This document shows, piece by piece, positions 4,194 to 9,631 of a stretch of DNA of 9,976 nucleotides. Under the pieces are notes generated by a model, which had not been told where the DNA came from, made no database searches, and worked only from the letters and a program-made list of their open reading frames with translations. Source of the DNA: a virus (lineage: Duplodnaviria; Heunggongvirae; Uroviricota; Caudoviricetes); IMG/VR virus record IMGVR_UViG_2778260993_000012; one strand, given 5' to 3'. The translations under genes were made by a program, and so were the position numbers. How positions within the stretch are numbered: position 1 is the first letter of the stretch; each line of letters starts with the position of its first letter.

Positions 4194-4389
4194 GCTTCAC
4201 CTCGATAGGCTTGATGGTATCGATCAGCAGTCGGCGGCGAGTATTTTCTGCAAAGTGGCGGCGTCCGGTTTCTTTGTGGTAAAATTCGTTTTTTCCGACG
4301 ACCCACATCCGCTTTGTCTGGTGCAGTTTTTTTACCTGCGGACCGTCTCGGGTGATAACAATTCCTGTATGAGTTTTTATCACGCTCAT
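4186..4389 (-). CDS. Hypothetical small basic phage protein, 67 aa
   Basis: ATG at 4389 overlaps the upstream stop in an ATGA junction. GGAG lies upstream. In the position of lambda orf61/orf63. No family recognised. Confidence 0.5.
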   Translation of the reverse strand: MSVIKTHTGIVITRDGPQVKKLHQTKRMWVVGKNEFYHKETGRRHFAENTRRRLLIDTIKPIEVKHV

Positions 4390-4748
4390 TTTTTATTCTC
4401 CGGTGCTTTCGGCATTACTGCCCAGTGAGTGATATTGACGTTTTCAAGGTCCCCGACCTGAAATGTCCACTGCCATTCTCCGGTTTCTTTTTGTCCCCAG
4501 GTGTACCAGAGAGAACGCCAGCCAATTAGCCAGCCTTCTCCGTTAGCATCAAATAACAGAACACTTTCATTTGCTGGCGGCAGTTCAGCTGACACTGGTA
4601 TTATTTTGTTTTCCAGTGCCGCACATTTAGCTTCAAGCGCATCGAATTTACGTACCAGGTACTCAGCATTTGTTTCATTCACTTTCAGATCTCGTGGTAC
4701 ACATTTCCCGCGAAGAAACCCTTCCATTTCGAAAACATTCATGCGCAT
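4386..4748 (-). CDS. DUF551-type phage protein, about 118-120 aa, coiled-coil N-terminus
   Basis: The C-terminus (AELPPANESVLLFDANGEGWLIGW...ITHWAVMPKAPE) resembles DUF551. Start is either ATG 4748 or ATG 4742; the latter forms an ATGA overlap with the upstream stop. Same length as E. coli K-12 YfdS (120 aa, from memory). Confidence 0.6.
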   Translation of the reverse strand: MRMNVFEMEGFLRGKCVPRDLKVNETNAEYLVRKFDALEAKCAALENKIIPVSAELPPANESVLLFDANGEGWLIGWRSLWYTWGQKETGEWQWTFQVGDLENVNITHWAVMPKAPENKK

Positions 4749-5275
4749 GTGCGTAACTCCGATAACTCGTTAAAGCGCTCCATAAACATCCCGTAGGCAT
4801 GGCCCGGTGCCAGTGGAATAACTTTGAACATTTCTGTTGCCGGGATACCTTCCAGTACTGGCCAGAAAGAGCCATCATCAAGCCCGAGATCGCGGCGTTC
4901 GGTTGCCAGCATGATGAGATCGGCATATTTCACAGGCGTGCTCATAACCGGGGGTAACCCGTATTTCTCACGGATTACGGCGTCTATTTTTTCTTCCATC
5001 CGTTTATAGTCAGGAAGAAGGCGTTTCAGTGGAGCGGGAATATCCTGGCAATACGCTTCTGTTGCATCATGCATTAACGCTTCAAAAGCAAATTCCTGCG
5101 GCACCAGCTGGCTGCAAAGCACCGCATGCTGGGCGACACTGTAGAAGTGTGAAAGATGTCCTGCAAAGCGACAGATATTTGAAAGGGAAACCGCGATATC
5201 GTTAATCACGATGTCGTCTTTATTTATCTTGTCATAATAAAAATGCTTCCCGGAAAAAGTTTTAATAAATGACAT
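4739..5275 (-). CDS. yfdR: HD-domain phosphohydrolase, YfdR-like putative 5'-deoxynucleotidase (178 aa)
   Basis: HD-family metal-binding motifs (SVAQHAV...LMHDATEAYCQDIPAPLK). Start set at ATG 5275 because of a GGAG ribosome-binding site 6 nt upstream; this gives 178 aa, the length I recall for E. coli K-12 YfdR. The track's 199-aa version starts at 5338 with no ribosome-binding site. Symbol assigned by family and length, not confirmed. Confidence 0.7.
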   Translation of the reverse strand: MSFIKTFSGKHFYYDKINKDDIVINDIAVSLSNICRFAGHLSHFYSVAQHAVLCSQLVPQEFAFEALMHDATEAYCQDIPAPLKRLLPDYKRMEEKIDAVIREKYGLPPVMSTPVKYADLIMLATERRDLGLDDGSFWPVLEGIPATEMFKVIPLAPGHAYGMFMERFNELSELRTCA

Positions 5276-5369
5276 TTCGTTCTCCACTTTATATGCGCTG
5301 CACCGCGCTGAATTCGGGTAAAAGGAATCCCGCACCATCCGGCGATTATTGAGTTAATTACGTTTCCAT

Positions 5370-5391
5370 AAATGCCCCCGCAGGGGCATTT
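5370..5391 (-). other. Perfect 9-bp stem-loop (AAATGCCCC-CGCA-GGGGCATTT) 12 nt downstream of the YfdQ-like stop
   Basis: Read directly from the sequence. No U-tract follows on either strand, so it is not a classical intrinsic terminator. It could be a weak terminator, an RNA-stability or processing hairpin, or a protein-binding palindrome. Confidence 0.3.
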
Positions 5392-5403
5392 GCAGTAATG
5401 AAA

Positions 5404-6228
5404 TCAGGCGGTGAAAGTACCAATAAAGGTTTCTACTTTGCTGTCTTTGAATTTCTCAACAAGCAGATCACGAAATTCGTTAGCCATTTCTTCCTGCACT
5501 GCTTCCAGCTGAATAATGCGCAGAACCAGTACAGGACGATCGCCAGTGATAATGCTGAGGCGTAATTTAAATGGACGTTCTTTCAGACCTTCAAACGGAA
5601 CGCATTTAAATTCAAATGCCACTGGCATAATATCTTTGGTTTTCGCTTCGACAGACTCCATCAGGGAGCGTTTGCCGCTGAAGTCATTATCTTCAAAATC
5701 AGCGGTCTGGTTTGCTTCAATCGTGATTTTACGGACAGCCGCAGCCGCTTTTGTTGCCTGAATAGCGTCACCATTAGCATCAAAGCCCACAAGGTAGTCG
5801 GCCCAGTCTTCAATCCATTCTGCCAGTGACTTCTGGGAATGACGCTCGCCGTTAACAGACAACAGAGCAGAGAACGGTGCTGTCTTTTTCAGTTTGAGAG
5901 TGGCGGTGTTATCTGCGTGACCTGGTTCATCAATAGTACCCAGGTTAAGCACACTGACGGCTCGCATATTATCGGCATCGATAAAGCAGCGGGTGCCTTC
6001 ATCTGCAAGATCTTTAGAATAACGGGTAAAGTCATCGATGCTGGCAGTGGAAAGCGCACCACGGAAACGGAAGCGATTTAAATTAAATTTTTCCAGATCA
6101 TGAATGCGGAAATTCTCAGGCAATGCCACAGCATCGGCACCAATCTTACTGATAATTTCATTAACACCCTGAGCAGAAATAAGAGCATGGATTTGATTAA
6201 TTGCGGTTGCGTCTAAGTTCTGAGACAT
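5404..6228 (-). CDS. yfdQ: YfdQ-like phage protein, DUF2303 family (274 aa)
   Basis: Complete ORF with a GAGGA ribosome-binding site 7 nt upstream of the ATG at 6228. Length matches E. coli K-12 YfdQ (274 aa) and the neighbouring gene order matches the K-12 yfdP-yfdQ-yfdR-yfdS cluster, all from memory. Function unknown. Confidence 0.65.
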
Positions 6229-6293
6229 AATAAGTCCTCACTATATAAAGATATTCAGTGATGAGATAAATAATCAGTTAATTAAGAACGATA

Positions 6294-6656
6294 TTAATGA
6301 CCTGCTGCGCGGAGTTTTCCGTCAGGTTCACCGGCAAGAGTCAGTAATTGTCCCTGGTCTTCCTGCAGAATAGTCAGGCGACCACCGCGATTGACATACA
6401 TCGGCGTTTCGGTGGTGTCTTCTTCAGAAATTTTCCCGCGGTTAGTCGGGCGAACATATGAGAGTTTGTGTTTGATTTTCACACGGTTCTCATCAAACGG
6501 TTCGATTTCCAGGTTGAGCGAGACCTTACCTTTGGTTTTCGTGTTCATCACACCGGAAGCGACTTCACTGAGAACTGCGCCGATTTTTGTTTCAAATACG
6601 CCGCCGTCCAGCTCCCCGATAAATGCCTGCACATCAGTACTGCGTTCGCTAGCCAT
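6294..6656 (-). CDS. YfdP-like small phage protein (120 aa); first gene of the leftward early operon
   Basis: Start set at ATG 6656 (MASERSTDVQAFIGELDGG...) with a GAGGAG ribosome-binding site 8 nt upstream. The track's 182-aa version (start 6842) adds a Cys/Arg-rich extension that runs into the structured leader. Same length as K-12 YfdP, from memory. Confidence 0.55.
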   Translation of the reverse strand: MASERSTDVQAFIGELDGGVFETKIGAVLSEVASGVMNTKTKGKVSLNLEIEPFDENRVKIKHKLSYVRPTNRGKISEEDTTETPMYVNRGGRLTILQEDQGQLLTLAGEPDGKLRAAGH

Positions 6657-6676
6657 TTTGTTGCTCCTCATCATAT

Positions 6677-6804
6677 CGACCCTGCAAGGTCGGTTGGTTT
6701 CTCCACAAAACAGAGAAGAACACCTGCGGTGGCAGCCGCCCGGATGGATTGGGTTATGAGCCCGTCGTCCGGTGATGCTCTTCTCTGTTTTGTAAAAAGA
6801 GCGG
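6677..6804 (-). promoter_or_regulatory. Structured 5' leader element with mutually exclusive helices, directly upstream of the first early gene
   Basis: On the minus-strand RNA, segment B (plus 6777-6793) can pair with upstream segment A (plus 6794-6802) as a 9-bp local hairpin with two G-U pairs, or with downstream segment C (plus 6705-6721) as a 15-bp long-range helix. A boxA-like sequence CGCTCTTTTTAC (plus 6793-6804) overlaps segment A. A further hairpin (plus 6677-6692) lies 8 nt before the ribosome-binding site. Function is inferred. Confidence 0.3.
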
Positions 6805-7327
6805 TACCAGCCGGAAGCAAGTGTACAAACTGGTACTGCCAAAGCAGTGGCTGTTGTGGTGACCGGTGCTGATCTCCGGCTTGCGGTTATTTCAGACTCT
6901 CACGGGCGTTTGATTGCCCCGCCGAACAGCTCTTTTCCGCAATAGCTGCAATGTCTTTCGCGCATCAGCCTGCGCATTCACCACAACGCTGAGAGCATTG
7001 CCGGTGTCCGAATCGAACGGACCTTTTCCCTGCCCAACCCTCCCATCTGAATGGGACTGTCTGGAATTGAACCAGCACTTATGCCTTGCTCGTCAATGCT
7101 CTCATCGTTGCGTCCTGGTCTCTTCCCAGGCGTCAAACCGAATCGCCACGCTGGTTAGGCGTCTTATCAGCATCCTCATTGACTTGCACATTCCGGCTAC
7201 CTGGTTTGTTTGCCCGAGCAAGGAGTGGATTGTCCCCTTTAACGTCCCCAGACCGCTAACGACGCATGTGCCATACGCCGTGTTACAACCAAATTTTGTT
7301 AGGACCTTGTTTGTTGGTCTGGAAAGA

Positions 7328-7379
7328 AAGATAAAATGAAATTGCGCATTATGCAAGTGTTTTGTTGCGAGATGCGCAA
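7328..7379 (-). promoter_or_regulatory. oL/pL-like region: two 15-bp palindromic operator sites overlapping a leftward promoter
   Basis: Sites TTGCGCATTATGCAA (7342-7356) and TTGCGAGATGCGCAA (7365-7379) share a TTGC-N7-GCAA pattern with centres 23 bp apart. Candidate minus-strand promoter: -35 TTGCAT (plus 7351-7356), 17-bp spacer, -10 TATCTT (plus 7328-7333). The first operator overlaps the -35. Confidence 0.5.
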
Positions 7380-7392
7380 TATGATGGGTGAT

Positions 7393-7414
7393 GAAAAGCC
7401 ACCTTCTGGTGGCT
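7393..7414 (-). terminator. Intrinsic terminator downstream of the repressor gene
   Basis: On the minus strand: 7-bp stem AGCCACC / GGTGGCT with a 4-nt loop, followed by TTTT, starting about 20 nt after the repressor stop. Confidence 0.6.
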
Positions 7415-7434
7415 AATTGATGAGGAGGTCGGGG

Positions 7435-8127
7435 TTAATTGTGTCGCTTAAGGGTTTGTGACTGACTGATTAAGACCTTCCCAAAGACCATAAACCGGTG
7501 TTCGTTTTCGCTGGTAATTCCCCATTCACGGTAAATCTGGTTATCAGAAATCACCAGTAGTTTGTCAGGTATCATTTGCAGTCGTTTGACATAAATTTTA
7601 TCATCAAAACCAAACACATAGATACCATCCCCATCAAACTGATTGATACTGATATCAACGAAGATGAGATCTCCTGGCTCAATGGTTGGACACATACTGT
7701 CCCCACGAACGTTGATAACTTTAATGTGATTGGCTGGTCGTCCTCCAAACATCGATACAGCATTATCAGTTATGTATTCAATGGCATGAATCACATCAAT
7801 GACATCACCGCCCTGGATAAGGCCATTTCCCGCACTGGCACTGACATCCAGCATTTCAATACGGAATACATCCTTCACCTGCGCAACATCCTCACCAGTA
7901 CTGTTTTTACATACAGTATTACTTTTGAAGTCTGAGGTAAAGAGATCTGCAATATCAACACCTAAGCTCCTGGCAATATTACTCAGGGCTTGTTCAGTGA
8001 ATTGTTTCTGCTTACCTGTTTCCAGGCGTGAGATATTCGCCGCATCCACTCCTATTGCTTCAGCGAGATCGGCGATTTTCATGTTCTTCGCCTGGCGAAG
8101 TTGTCTGACTCGATTTCCTATGTTCAT
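7435..8127 (-). CDS. cI-type phage repressor: N-terminal helix-turn-helix (XRE) domain plus C-terminal S24 (LexA-like) autopeptidase domain, 230 aa
   Basis: The N-terminus (VRQLRQAKNMKIADLAEAIGVDAANISRLETGKQ) is a helix-turn-helix. An Ala-Gly cleavage site lies in SASAGNG. RGDSMCPTIEPGDLIFVD carries the catalytic Ser, and VKRL the likely Lys. Divergent from a Cro-like gene. No Shine-Dalgarno sequence before the ATG. Confidence 0.9.
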   Translation of the reverse strand: MNIGNRVRQLRQAKNMKIADLAEAIGVDAANISRLETGKQKQFTEQALSNIARSLGVDIADLFTSDFKSNTVCKNSTGEDVAQVKDVFRIEMLDVSASAGNGLIQGGDVIDVIHAIEYITDNAVSMFGGRPANHIKVINVRGDSMCPTIEPGDLIFVDISINQFDGDGIYVFGFDDKIYVKRLQMIPDKLLVISDNQIYREWGITSENEHRFMVFGKVLISQSQTLKRHN

Positions 8128-8485: not shown

Positions 8486-9029
8486 GCATCACTGGAAAGT
8501 GGAAAAACAGCCTGAGTGGTACGTGAAAGCGGTCAGAAAAACTATCGCGGCGTTGCCGGGTGGTTACGCTGAAGCAGCTGAGTGGCTGGATGTAACAGAG
8601 AACGCTTTATTCAATCGCCTTCGTGCCGATGGCGATCAGATTTTCCCGCTGGGATGGGCAATGATTTTACAGCGCGCGGCTGGCACTCACTACATTGCGG
8701 ATGCTGTCGCACAGTCTGCTGGTGGGGTGTTTGTATCGCTTCCTGACATTGAGGAAGTAGAGAACGCCGATATAAACCAGCGCCTGCTGGAAGTCATCGA
8801 ACAGATCGGGAGTTACTCAAAGCAGATTCGTTCGGCAATCGAAGATGGGGTAGTGGAGCCACACGAGCAGACAGCAATGAATGATGAGTTGTATCTGTCA
8901 ATTTCGAAGCTCCAGGAGCATGCGGCACTGGTCTACAAAATTTTCTGCGCTCCAGAAAAGAGTGACGCCCGCGAGTGTGCAGCTCCGGGCGTCGTGGCGT
9001 TTTGTGTCTGTGGAGAAACTAACGCATGA
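8478..9029 (+). CDS. Early regulatory protein in the cII position, possibly YdaT-family (183 aa)
   Basis: GTG start at 8478 with an AAGGAGG ribosome-binding site 6 nt upstream. Follows the Cro-like gene as in racR-ydaS-ydaT or cI-cro-cII layouts. Family call is tentative. Confidence 0.45.
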   Translation: MGKHHWKVEKQPEWYVKAVRKTIAALPGGYAEAAEWLDVTENALFNRLRADGDQIFPLGWAMILQRAAGTHYIADAVAQSAGGVFVSLPDIEEVENADINQRLLEVIEQIGSYSKQIRSAIEDGVVEPHEQTAMNDELYLSISKLQEHAALVYKIFCAPEKSDARECAAPGVVAFCVCGETNA

Positions 9030-9174
9030 ACAGTTTAACGGCAAATAACCGTTTGTCGCAACAGCTGGTGGTCAGTGTCGCTGCACACCTGTTGTTACGG
9101 CATGAATGCAGATTACCAAATCACCTGGCTGTAAGTAACCACAGAGAACTTTACCTGACTGTGGGGGGCGAGTT

Positions 9175-9354
9175 GTGCAGGAACTTAACCGCTGGTTTCG
9201 TGACGGAAGAGGACTTTATGTTCATGTTATTCGTTGGGAGCCAGAAACACAGCGCGTTATCTATCTTCGCAAAGACTACCCGCATGAGTGCTTTAGTCCT
9301 TTGTGGAAATTCAGGCGTGATTTTGTTGAGTGTGAAGGACCACCAGCATATTGA
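9175..9354 (+). CDS. Candidate small ORF, 59 aa, GTG start (VQELNRWFRDGRGLYVHVIRWEPETQRVIYLRKDYPHECFSPLWKFRRDFVECEGPPAY)
   Basis: Frame +1, not in the track. The composition looks globular (Trp, Tyr and charged residues) and a G-rich stretch precedes the GTG. It overlaps a long open frame +2, so only one of the two is likely to be real. Confidence 0.25.
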   Translation: MQELNRWFRDGRGLYVHVIRWEPETQRVIYLRKDYPHECFSPLWKFRRDFVECEGPPAY

Positions 9355-9439
9355 TTCTGCAATTCCGGGACGTTACACTGTTCAGGCACCTTATAAAACG
9401 GGTGCCGGGATTGGCGTCCTGAAATTGATTACTGAGCAT

Positions 9440-9461
9440 AACCGCGCTCATGCGGTTTTTT
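9440..9461 (+). terminator. Terminator-like hairpin with U-tract (AACCGC-GCTCAT-GCGGTT followed by TTTT)
   Basis: 6-bp stem, 6-nt loop and a T6 run on the plus strand. Weak stem. It lies between the candidate small ORF and the Rha-like gene, and inside the open +2 frame. Confidence 0.3.
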
Positions 9462-9631
9462 CGTGTCATGAGCATTACTACGCCCAAATTATGGTGGGGC
9501 GTACAGGGCCGACTTCGGTCGGGCCGGGTTCGGTAGTCTCCGGTAACGCCAACCCTGTACGTCTCACCACCTCTGTGATTGGCGTCCCATGTGGTGAGTT
9601 TTCTAAAAAACTGACTACCGGGGCTGTCACT

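Follow-up and report, generated by a model that had tools for sequence, protein, structure and literature searches.

The gene set yfdP-yfdQ-yfdR has already been named and partly studied, and is common in lambda-like prophages of Escherichia coli. Work on the K-12 proteins showed that YfdR binds domain I of DnaA through Phe46, in competition with DiaA and DnaB, and that multicopy yfdQ plus yfdR plus either yfdS or yfdT, the last two being interchangeable helpers, blocks initiation at oriC, with yfdP dispensable (PMC4776307; Noguchi & Katayama 2016; reviewed in PMC5448010). The inhibition was seen only on overexpression and its authors allow for a possible artefact; initiation and HU resistance were unchanged by deletion of yfdQRST, and YfdQ, YfdS and YfdT were without strong affinity for YfdR or DnaA in pull-downs (PMC4776307). 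YfdR has also been reported as a weak dNMPase, and deletion of its gene as not raising CMP yield. Lambda P and Bacillus subtilis SirA resemble YfdR in being small proteins that bind the initiator and prevent oriC initiation, and SirA and YfdR both depend on an equivalent phenylalanine of DnaA domain I (PMC4776307). However, neither is related to YfdR in sequence; lambda P binds domain III and doubles as helicase loader, whereas YfdR is an HD-fold protein and, unlike both, requires YfdQ plus YfdS or YfdT in vivo.

From the phage side, Zheng et al. (2025, PMC12315714) described a class of lambdoid phages, 'no Rec module, high Chi', that lack Rec genes and have at least 8 Chi sites in one orientation and no more than 6 in the opposite one. 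LLS, ST64B and phiNP lack a Rec module, and a yfdR/yfdQ/yfdP-type cluster is named in them. In that study the three genes form a single cluster without a known function; it does not split an obligate YfdP-YfdQ pair from a facultative HD gene, and does not mention that the pair lies next to SSB and Rec genes outside lambdoid phages. The Abc1/Arf-type genes of P22 are comparable to YfdP-YfdQ in another respect, since both occur in or beside Rec modules, are neither annealase nor nuclease and have unknown molecular functions. The two differ in that YfdP-YfdQ also occurs in phages without any Rec module, and they are not known to be related in sequence.

The window analysed here, meaning the whole stretch of 9,976 nucleotides (IMG/VR record IMGVR_UViG_2778260993_000012), is 100% identical in DNA to a STEC prophage in which RefSeq labels the genes yfdP, yfdQ and yfdR (Table 1). 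These belong to the early-left operon, being downstream of the CI-type repressor gene and on its strand. The ORFs of 120, 274 and 178 aa in the initial annotation are real, with correct coordinates, all on the minus strand and in agreement with the RefSeq names, and the module indeed sits where lambda has exo-bet-gam, as PMC12315714 found for LLS, ST64B and phiNP.

Table 1. Features of the early-left region, in window coordinates
Feature	Coordinates	Strand	Description
CI-type (XRE/S24) repressor gene	7435..8127	-	PHROG 4/CI-like; RefSeq XRE family regulator
Leader between repressor gene and yfdP	6657..7434	-	778 nt; no RefSeq CDS; presumed pL transcript leader
yfdP	6294..6656	-	120 aa; PHROG 204; near-identical database homologues with Pfam PF27127; own GAGGAG Shine-Dalgarno
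yfdQ	5404..6228	-	274 aa; DUF2303; PF10065; PHROG 210
GC-rich hairpin	5370..5391	-	AAATGCCCC-TGCG-GGGGCATTT; begins 12 nt past the yfdQ stop; local fold
yfdR	4739..5275	-	178 aa; HD-domain phosphohydrolase-type; PHROG 318; RefSeq yfdR
yfdS-type gene	4386..4748	-	120 aa; Pfam DUF551; overlaps the yfdR stop by 10 nt

Compared with CPS-53 (KplE1) of K-12, the window has the same gene order, the same intergenic gaps and the same hairpin after yfdQ, and identities are 119/120 for YfdP, 271/274 for YfdQ, 175/178 for YfdR (differing at residues 151, 170 and 176) and 117/120 for YfdS. The cryptic-prophage counterparts named in the initial annotation thus exist, YfdP, YfdQ and YfdR being 98-99% identical. 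The genomic settings differ: CPS-53 is a 10-kb remnant at argW, whereas the window genes belong to a 47-kb prophage that lies beside mlrA and appears complete, having an integrase of its own, a repressor region and late genes of the lambda kind. Unlike K-12, this prophage also lacks full-length YfdT, and an N-terminal YfdT motif is found inside a 254-aa DUF551 protein.

In the 778-nt leader we found no recognisable gene and no N homologue by RefSeq CDS and a PHROG search of the coding strand, and no Rfam family or intact tRNA by Rfam and ARAGORN. Pfam and PHROG searches of every early-left ORF of the window likewise gave no Exo/Bet/Gam, RecE/RecT or Erf domain. Across the whole prophage, no annealase (Redbeta/RecT/Erf/Sak4 types), 5'-3' exonuclease (lambda Exo/YqaJ/RecE types) or RecBCD inhibitor, the last a usual part of a Rec module, is annotated, and RusA in the nin region is the only exception among recombination annotations. 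The absence of such genes, noted in the initial annotation, is therefore upheld by both domain search and annotation, and the prophage resembles LLS, ST64B and phiNP in lacking annealase, exonuclease and anti-RecBCD genes while carrying the yfdR/yfdQ/yfdP-type cluster early-left. The two strands of the whole 47.3-kb prophage carry 15 and 5 Chi sites, where base composition predicts 1.2 for each, and the window has 4 where 0.33 are expected. These counts place the prophage in the 'no Rec module, high Chi' class. We read the yfdPQR stretch as part of the early-left operon of a CPS-53/SfV/ST64B-type lambdoid prophage that has many Chi sites and no recombination module of its own.

The initial annotation described the three genes as all translationally coupled. 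Instead, gaps of 65 nt (yfdP-yfdQ) and 128 nt (yfdQ-yfdR) separate them, each gene has its own Shine-Dalgarno, a hairpin follows yfdQ, and the sole overlap among yfdP, yfdQ, yfdR and yfdS is the translationally coupled one between yfdR and yfdS. The hairpin is a regular feature of this position. A hairpin of -12 kcal/mol or stronger follows yfdQ in 69 of 70 related loci, with a median energy of -17.2 against -10.9 in random windows; in 43 of the 70 the stem is perfect over 8 bp or more, against 1.3% of random windows; and RNAalifold predicted 10 pairs, of which 7 show compensatory double changes. A consensus scan for intrinsic terminators did not list it, because its T-run is short. The hairpin marks the 3' boundary of the yfdP-yfdQ unit, and it may serve as a leaky terminator or stabilise the mRNA.

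The true partner of the DUF2303 protein is YfdP and not the HD protein, and the pair is obligate across gammaproteobacterial phages. Of 71 species-level genome loci, 69 have a YfdP homologue directly upstream of YfdQ, the two exceptions being truncated, and the same arrangement is seen in six distant phages (Vibrio, Xanthomonas, Thalassomonas, Halomonas, Acinetobacter and Stx). YfdP and YfdQ occur in 180 and 184 phage records with a shared host distribution, and distance-matrix correlations are 0.81 for P-Q, 0.53 for Q-R and 0.16 for Q-cI. Hence, yfdP and yfdQ co-evolve as a unit of constant order. In contrast, roughly one in five related loci lack YfdR, as do all six of the distant phages, and the 324 phage records or genomes with YfdR-like HD genes show a quite different host distribution. 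The functional pair of DUF2303 protein and HD hydrolase that had been proposed is thus not supported, the invariant partner of YfdQ being YfdP, and YfdR is a facultative, independently distributed HD hydrolase. The scan of viral contigs yielded solely near-identical E. coli prophages, and the diverse alignments used for the locus search contained no conserved stretch of 7-10 residues.

In several lineages the pair is placed among recombination genes. The order is gam-recT-exo-ssb-yfdP-yfdQ in ArgO145; erf, yqaJ, in some cases a dnaQ-like exonuclease, yfdP and yfdQ in Vibrio and Thalassomonas phages, with an annotated ssb after yfdQ in a Vibrio phage; and yfdP and yfdQ followed by erf, exonuclease and ssb in a Xanthomonas phage. 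The gene after yfdP-yfdQ in Proteus columbae and Hahella clusters with the Vibrio-phage ssb, and a DEDD exonuclease is present in 21 related loci. This is guilt by association from a few lineages; most Enterobacterales loci have no SSB or annealase gene nearby. The pairing, the hairpin boundary, the facultative nature of YfdR and the adjacency to Rec genes are new in this analysis, as is the lack of a solved fold matching the models of YfdP and YfdQ described below.

YfdQ matches DUF2303 over residues 7-272 (E 1e-92, 310 bits, cut-off 26.6), which bears out the initial family assignment, and its PHROG profile at E 2e-120; YfdP matches its own PHROG profile at E 1e-49, and its Pfam label was taken from the precomputed column of 99%-identical database proteins. 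The DUF2303/YfdQ family forms 1469 clusters at 50% identity, with representatives of 264-302 aa, and the window shows a trait derived here and outside the Pfam definition, a stand-alone YfdQ of about 270 aa with a YfdP-type gene ahead of it. In a scan for weak Pfam matches among 37 diverse YfdQ homologues nothing recurred beyond DUF2303; HHH_8 appeared in 3 of the 37 at E of about 1e-3. Invariant residues of YfdQ, E46, H104, Q132 and D141, together with a PGHxDH motif, could form a metal site. The protein is acidic (pI about 5, net charge -10), and a reading as DNA mimic is unconvincing because this acidity is only moderate.

A homologue of YfdQ forms a large homo-oligomer in PDB 9o7m ('YfdQ Protein'), which holds 36 chains of a Xanthomonas-phage protein that is 99% identical, over the aligned 90%, to YfdQ of phage MET23-P3. 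We rejected the idea that 9o7m comes from a virion reconstruction, as the capsid, connector and nozzle proteins of MET23-P3 match only distant PDB homologues; its YfdP-like and downstream proteins are absent from the PDB. Our literature search, in which one query was poorly worded, found no paper on 9o7m or on DUF2303 function. The AF2 model of YfdP combines helices at the N-terminus with a beta meander of three strands and a tail that is conserved and disordered (TETPMYVNRGGKLT), and that of YfdQ has a pLDDT of 78.6. Neither had a significant match among the solved folds searched, and neither was similar in fold to Rad52/Redbeta/RecT/Erf, RecA, Gp2.5, lambda Exo, Gam or Ku. Structural homology of the DUF2303 protein to ordinary recombination or replication proteins, an outcome that the initial annotation had considered, was thus not seen for the predicted fold.

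YfdR is a member of its PHROG at E 1e-109, shows weak YfbR-like/HD_3 profile matches, and aligns with the solved HD protein Atu1052 (PDB 2gz4) at E 1e-13 over 159 residues. It shares with Atu1052 and E. coli YfbR the H...HD...D metal-ligand pattern (H50, H69-D70 and D119), which is at least 97% conserved among 55 homologues, so that its description as a 178-aa HD-domain protein stands. Unlike members of the YfbR family, it falls below the cut-offs for YfbR-type 5'-deoxynucleotidases (23.9 against 25.9 bits for PF12917, and 19.9 against 122 for NCBIfam NF003009), and for this reason the RefSeq product name '5'-deoxynucleotidase' is stronger than the scores justify. Since the metal ligands are conserved, YfdR probably keeps phosphohydrolase activity. 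The deoxynucleoside-5'-monophosphatase Dmp of T5 was rejected as a homologue, with nothing found by BLASTP and a different PHROG (415 against 318); as an early phage enzyme dephosphorylating dNMPs, it is a possible functional analogue only. At 175 of 178 residues identical to the tested K-12 protein, the YfdR of the window would be expected to bind DnaA domain I. The suggestion of a host-takeover role thus gains backing from experiments on nearly identical K-12 proteins, which comprise DnaA domain I binding and the oriC block (PMC4776307). By the same token, the initial remark that the module lacked characterisation does not hold, this work being published and the 9o7m structure deposited.

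We propose an explanation with two units, yfdP-yfdQ and yfdR coupled to yfdS, in a Rec-less and Chi-rich prophage, and taken as a whole we consider its chances to be balanced. In the first unit, YfdP and YfdQ would act as a complex on intermediates of phage or host DNA replication and recombination, being accessory to SSB, annealase and exonuclease functions and not a substitute for them. In the second, YfdR would shut off host initiation during lytic growth, much as lambda P. Counting against this explanation are the overexpression that the oriC phenotype required, predicted folds of which neither matches a DNA-binding or recombination protein, the acidity of YfdQ and the small number of lineages behind the neighbourhood argument. 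As yfdP is dispensable for the oriC block and the pair occurs without YfdR, the primary role of YfdP-YfdQ is probably something other than this block. A more specific version, that the pair is a self-contained two-protein machine with folds outside the solved structures searched and YfdQ as large homo-oligomer, working on ssDNA or helicase-loading intermediates as an unrecognised function of phage recombination-replication regions, is tentative, and we think it rather less likely than not to be right.

Much of the same evidence could be turned towards YfdP-YfdQ being a recombination system in its own right that has gone unrecognised, with a new type of annealase and/or nuclease in place of Red, RecET or Erf. 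The pair occupies the Rec-module position in phages without another recombination gene, and between repressor and integrase of prophages L092 and L109 yfdP-yfdQ are the sole recognised genes besides short unassigned ORFs. Adjacency to ssb is frequent, annealases are large homo-oligomers like the YfdQ homologue, the invariant YfdQ residues could make a metal site, and a yfdQ deletion is reported to be sensitive to MMS and H2O2 in work cited in PMC4776307. However, the pair coexists with complete sets of Erf or RecT, exonuclease and SSB in at least four lineages, the models resemble none of the recombination folds compared, and Zheng et al. (PMC12315714) reject the idea by a co-occurrence argument. 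Moreover, the class is Chi-rich and growth of LLS is aided by RecBCD, which implies reliance on host recombination. We therefore regard a replacement system as unlikely.

The position in an early operon would also suit a module that counters host defence, with YfdR hydrolysing dNMP/dNTP-pool or signalling nucleotides and the YfdQ oligomer serving as sponge or decoy. Large homo-oligomers are typical of some nucleotide sponges, the catalytic ligands of YfdR are conserved, HD genes of the YfdR type have a wide but patchy distribution over lytic and jumbo phages that are unrelated to one another, and in Vibrio phage 34E29.1 the third gene downstream of yfdQ encodes a Tad2-like anti-Thoeris domain. 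Yet YfdP, YfdQ, YfdR, YfdS and two neighbouring proteins had no PADLOC hit, Pfam and PHROG annotation gave no known anti-defence family, DnaA is the only documented partner of YfdR, and YfdP-YfdQ is syntenically fixed in a core position, unlike typical variable anti-defence cargo. An anti-defence role is thus improbable. A benefit to the lysogen, in which low prophage expression damps replication initiation or helps stressed cells to tolerate DNA damage, a role put forward for cryptic CPS-53, seems unlikely as the main reason for keeping the genes. It would fit a module that is 98-99% intact in a defective K-12 prophage and whose DNA is matched in 3127 of 5426 complete E. coli genomes, the damage sensitivities of the yfdQ deletion and the reported H2O2 sensitivity of a yfdS deletion (cited in PMC4776307), and a report that YfdQ production alters the behaviour of another phage in BW25113. 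On the other hand, the repressor-controlled early-left promoter region is upstream of these genes, which occur also in strictly lytic podophages in which repressor and integrase are not annotated, and which can be removed as yfdQRST without the effects looked for in PMC4776307.

This instance of the module is ordinary, its genes being named, present in K-12 and partly characterised, and over half of the complete E. coli genomes contain matching DNA. The YfdP-YfdQ pair itself is a large, strictly paired family in a core early position of many temperate and some lytic phages. If the two-protein machine proposed above is real, it would be the only phage contribution to recombination-dependent replication in phages of the 'no Rec module' kind. 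Knowing what the pair does would close a gap in the understanding of replication in Rec-less, Chi-rich lambdoid phages, and might also explain why YfdQ is required in the YfdR-dependent block of host initiation.

Our results showed that the yfdPQR module consists of two units, a YfdP–YfdQ pair and an HD-domain gene that is separable from it and widely scattered. Among 71 loci (sampled at one genome per species, largely from Enterobacterales, with Hahella in addition), a YfdP homologue was located directly upstream of YfdQ in 69; of the other two, one is cut off by the end of its contig and one has a fragmentary yfdQ. The same adjacency was found in six distant phages added to the sample, namely Vibrio phage 34E29.1, Xanthomonas phage Tabio, Thalassomonas phage BA3, Halomonas phage H4907, Stx phage ArgO145 and Acinetobacter phage Mystique, whose YfdQ is just 26% identical. 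Records of YfdP and YfdQ in the phage collection were 180 and 184, respectively, distributed over hosts in the same way. Iterative search placed a YfdR-type gene after yfdQ in 56 of the 71 loci (clustering in 53), and none of the six distant phages has one beside the pair. YfdR-like HD genes occurred in 324 phage records, dominated by phages without YfdP–YfdQ and mainly with Bacillus, Caulobacter, Rhizobium, Pseudomonas and Stenotrophomonas hosts. Moreover, correlations of pairwise-distance matrices were highest for YfdP–YfdQ (r = 0.81), followed by YfdQ–YfdR (0.53), YfdP–YfdR (0.43) and YfdQ–repressor (0.16). The initial annotation correctly assigned YfdQ to DUF2303 (Pfam E 1e-92) and paired it with the HD hydrolase, but the partner of YfdQ is YfdP.

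The window is 100% identical to an E. coli STEC1585 prophage adjoining mlrA, in which RefSeq names yfdP, yfdQ and yfdR, and DNA of 4300-6900 was matched in 3127 of 5426 complete E. coli genomes. Compared with K-12 CPS-53, YfdP differs by 1 residue, and YfdQ, YfdR and YfdS by 3 each. The feature is already known and partly characterised, and the first observation was mostly right; it knew of no characterisation, but yfdQRST has been studied (PMC4776307). In the source genome, the integrase end of the prophage directly abuts mlrA (L001:4054-4740), an annotated pseudogene interrupted by an internal stop codon. Two RNAs of the early-right operon, an isrK Hfq-binding sRNA (9386-9462, plus strand) and a C4 antisense RNA (9487-9574, plus strand), scored 60 and 82 bits, each exceeding its Rfam gathering score. 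By the annotation of the source genome they lie immediately upstream of a gene for a Rha-family regulator; this position suggests a P1/P7-type antisense immunity element within a lambdoid prophage.

The early-left operon runs on the minus strand from the repressor gene towards excisionase and integrase, and its remaining ORFs encode Ead/Ea22, two DUF551 proteins, a DUF4222 protein and members of small PHROG families without known function. Translational coupling, initially proposed for all three genes, holds for yfdR–yfdS alone (10-nt overlap); gaps of 65 and 128 nt separate yfdP–yfdQ and yfdQ–yfdR, and yfdP, yfdQ and yfdR each have a Shine-Dalgarno sequence. The N-terminus of the 254-aa DUF551 protein matches that of K-12 YfdT, and hence yfdT looks like a shortened form of this longer protein. 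The 778-nt leader that separates yfdP from the repressor gene (6657-7434) contains neither a recognisable gene nor an N homologue. Its DNA at about 6850-7300 matches Salmonella phages SPN1S and SPC32N, phage P1 and many Klebsiella phages, and the matching DNA of SPC32N is annotated as tRNA-Arg. Two T-arm-like hairpins, GTCCGTTCGATTCGGAC and CTGGTTCAATTCCAG, lie on the minus strand of this leader, in which ARAGORN and Rfam detected no intact tRNA, so that they are possibly remnants of tRNA genes.

Coordinates of features in the window and of exonuclease examples in collected loci
Feature	Position	Strand	Remark
Integrase	75-1361	minus	
Excisionase	1395-1649	minus	
DUF551 protein	2133-2897	minus	254 aa
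DUF551 protein	4386-4748	minus	same operon
yfdR	4739-5275	minus	178 aa; open frame reaches 5338, annotated start 5275
Motif 3' of hairpin	about 5358-5369	minus	
yfdQ 3' hairpin	5370-5391		
yfdQ	5404-6228	minus	274 aa; ORF and RefSeq name
yfdP	6294-6656	minus	120 aa; ORF and RefSeq name
CI-type repressor gene	7435-8127	minus	
Chi site	1769-1776	plus	
Chi site	8718-8725	plus	
Chi site	9064-9071	plus	
Chi site	9340-9347	minus	
DEDD exonuclease	L147:10461-11033		
DEDD exonuclease	L104		gene next after yfdQ

In 69 of 70 loci, a GC-rich hairpin begins about 11-12 nt past the yfdQ stop codon. Its median stability was -17.2 kcal/mol; random windows drawn from these loci gave -10.9, and the region following yfdP gave -6.0. 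Perfect stems of 8 bp or more occurred in 43 of 70 loci versus 1.3% of random windows. Stem sequences vary from lineage to lineage, and RNAalifold of 37 distinct sequences gave a 10-pair stem, 7 pairs of which are preserved via two-sided changes. The U-run past the stem is short. Judged from sequence, the hairpin may act as a leaky terminator or 3' stabiliser, separating yfdP–yfdQ from downstream genes. Just 3' of it, the motif TTTAGTGAAGCG / TTTATGGAAGCG is conserved across genera (alignment A5, columns 39-47) and is a candidate processing site or yfdR promoter/operator.

Most Enterobacterales loci have the order replication gene, cII-like, cro, repressor, leader, yfdP, yfdQ, (yfdR), small genes, xis and int, and in certain loci integrase follows yfdP–yfdQ nearly directly. 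In 21 loci, a gene for a DEDD 3'-5' exonuclease (PF16473) stands between yfdR and xis; this Rv2179c-like family (E 3e-72) occurs in prophages of many Enterobacterales species and is absent from the window. In Proteus columbae and Hahella, the gene 3' of yfdQ clusters with the annotated ssb that follows yfdQ in the Vibrio phage. The pair is preceded by gam, recT, exo and ssb in ArgO145, and by erf, a yqaJ-domain protein and (a DnaQ-like exonuclease) in the Vibrio phage and BA3; in Xanthomonas phages it is followed by a 400-470 aa protein, erf, yqaJ exonuclease and ssb. Thus, YfdP–YfdQ associates with ssDNA-handling genes, yet is additional to annealase and exonuclease, which argues against its being simply a Red system in disguise. 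The podophage 34E29.1 also encodes a Tad2-like (anti-Thoeris) domain; its gene (L002:6712-7221) is the third one downstream of yfdQ, with ssb and a small ORF in between.

As first noted, none of the early-left ORFs encodes an Exo, Bet, Gam, RecE, RecT or Erf domain. Across the whole prophage, RusA of the nin region is the sole annotated recombination gene. Chi (GCTGGTGG) occurs 4 times in the window against 0.33 expected, and in the 47.3-kb prophage (L162:668-48000) 15 times on the late-gene strand and 5 times on the other, with 1.2 per strand expected from base composition. Zheng et al. (PMC12315714) described Chi-rich, Rec-less lambdoid phages, showing that RecBCD boosts growth of the type phage LLS and that LLS, ST64B and phiNP have a yfdR/yfdQ/yfdP-type cluster. 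Being Rec-less and Chi-enriched, this prophage fits their 'no Rec module, high Chi' class, and this membership explains its lack of Rec genes.

In the AlphaFold2 model of YfdQ (pLDDT 78.6), two alpha/beta regions follow an N-terminal helix. The YfdP model is weaker (pLDDT 69.4) and combines helices and a three-stranded meander with a disordered tail that is conserved. Invariant residues of YfdQ (E46, H104, Q132 and D141) and its conserved PGHxDH motif could form a metal site or oligomer interface. The initial annotation held that structural resemblance of DUF2303 to ordinary recombination or replication proteins would count against its proposal; no such resemblance was found in fold libraries (releases up to April 2026) lacking PDB entry 9o7m, 'YfdQ Protein'. 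This entry has 36 chains of a 274-aa homologue that is 99% identical, over an aligned 90%, to a protein of the CP2-like podophage MET23-P3 of Xanthomonas; a literature search found no paper on it. Reading 9o7m as a virion map was rejected: capsid, connector and nozzle proteins of MET23-P3 have only distant PDB relatives, and the PDB lacks both its YfdP-like protein and the downstream proteins.

The HD nature of YfdR is confirmed by its match to the solved HD protein Atu1052 (2gz4, E 1e-13) and by H50, H69-D70 and D119, which are near-invariant among 55 homologues with identity down to 49%. However, YfdR scores below the curated cut-offs for YfbR 5'-deoxynucleotidase (Pfam 23.9 vs 25.9 bits; NCBIfam 19.9 vs 122), and its label '5'-deoxynucleotidase' rests on sub-threshold similarity. 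Noguchi and Katayama (PMC4776307) found yfdQRST as a multicopy suppressor of hda-185, demonstrated DnaA binding and genetic requirements for the near-identical K-12 proteins, and showed that extracts over-supplied with YfdQRST inhibit oriC replication in vitro; yfdQRST deletion gave no initiation phenotype, and the authors concede a possible overexpression artefact.

We give about an even chance to host takeover via DnaA by yfdR–yfdS, combined with a yfdP–yfdQ complex in phage DNA replication or recombination. The yfdR–yfdS product would bind DnaA domain I and, with help from YfdQ, suppress oriC initiation in lytic growth, and YfdR probably also keeps phosphohydrolase activity. The putative YfdP–YfdQ complex would act primarily on intermediates of phage DNA replication or recombination, assisting SSB, annealase and nuclease or host RecBCD. 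That YfdP–YfdQ is a novel recombinase seems improbable, since the pair accompanies annealase and exonuclease genes rather than substituting for them; Zheng et al. (PMC12315714) likewise judged a hidden recombination system unlikely because ArgO145 carries the cluster alongside a full Rec module. To the anti-defence function initially proposed, and to a stress function benefiting the lysogen, we assign a similarly low probability. The analysis thus corrects the initial annotation in placing YfdP as the DUF2303 partner, the HD gene as separable, the YfdR label as sub-threshold and the prophage in a Rec-less class.
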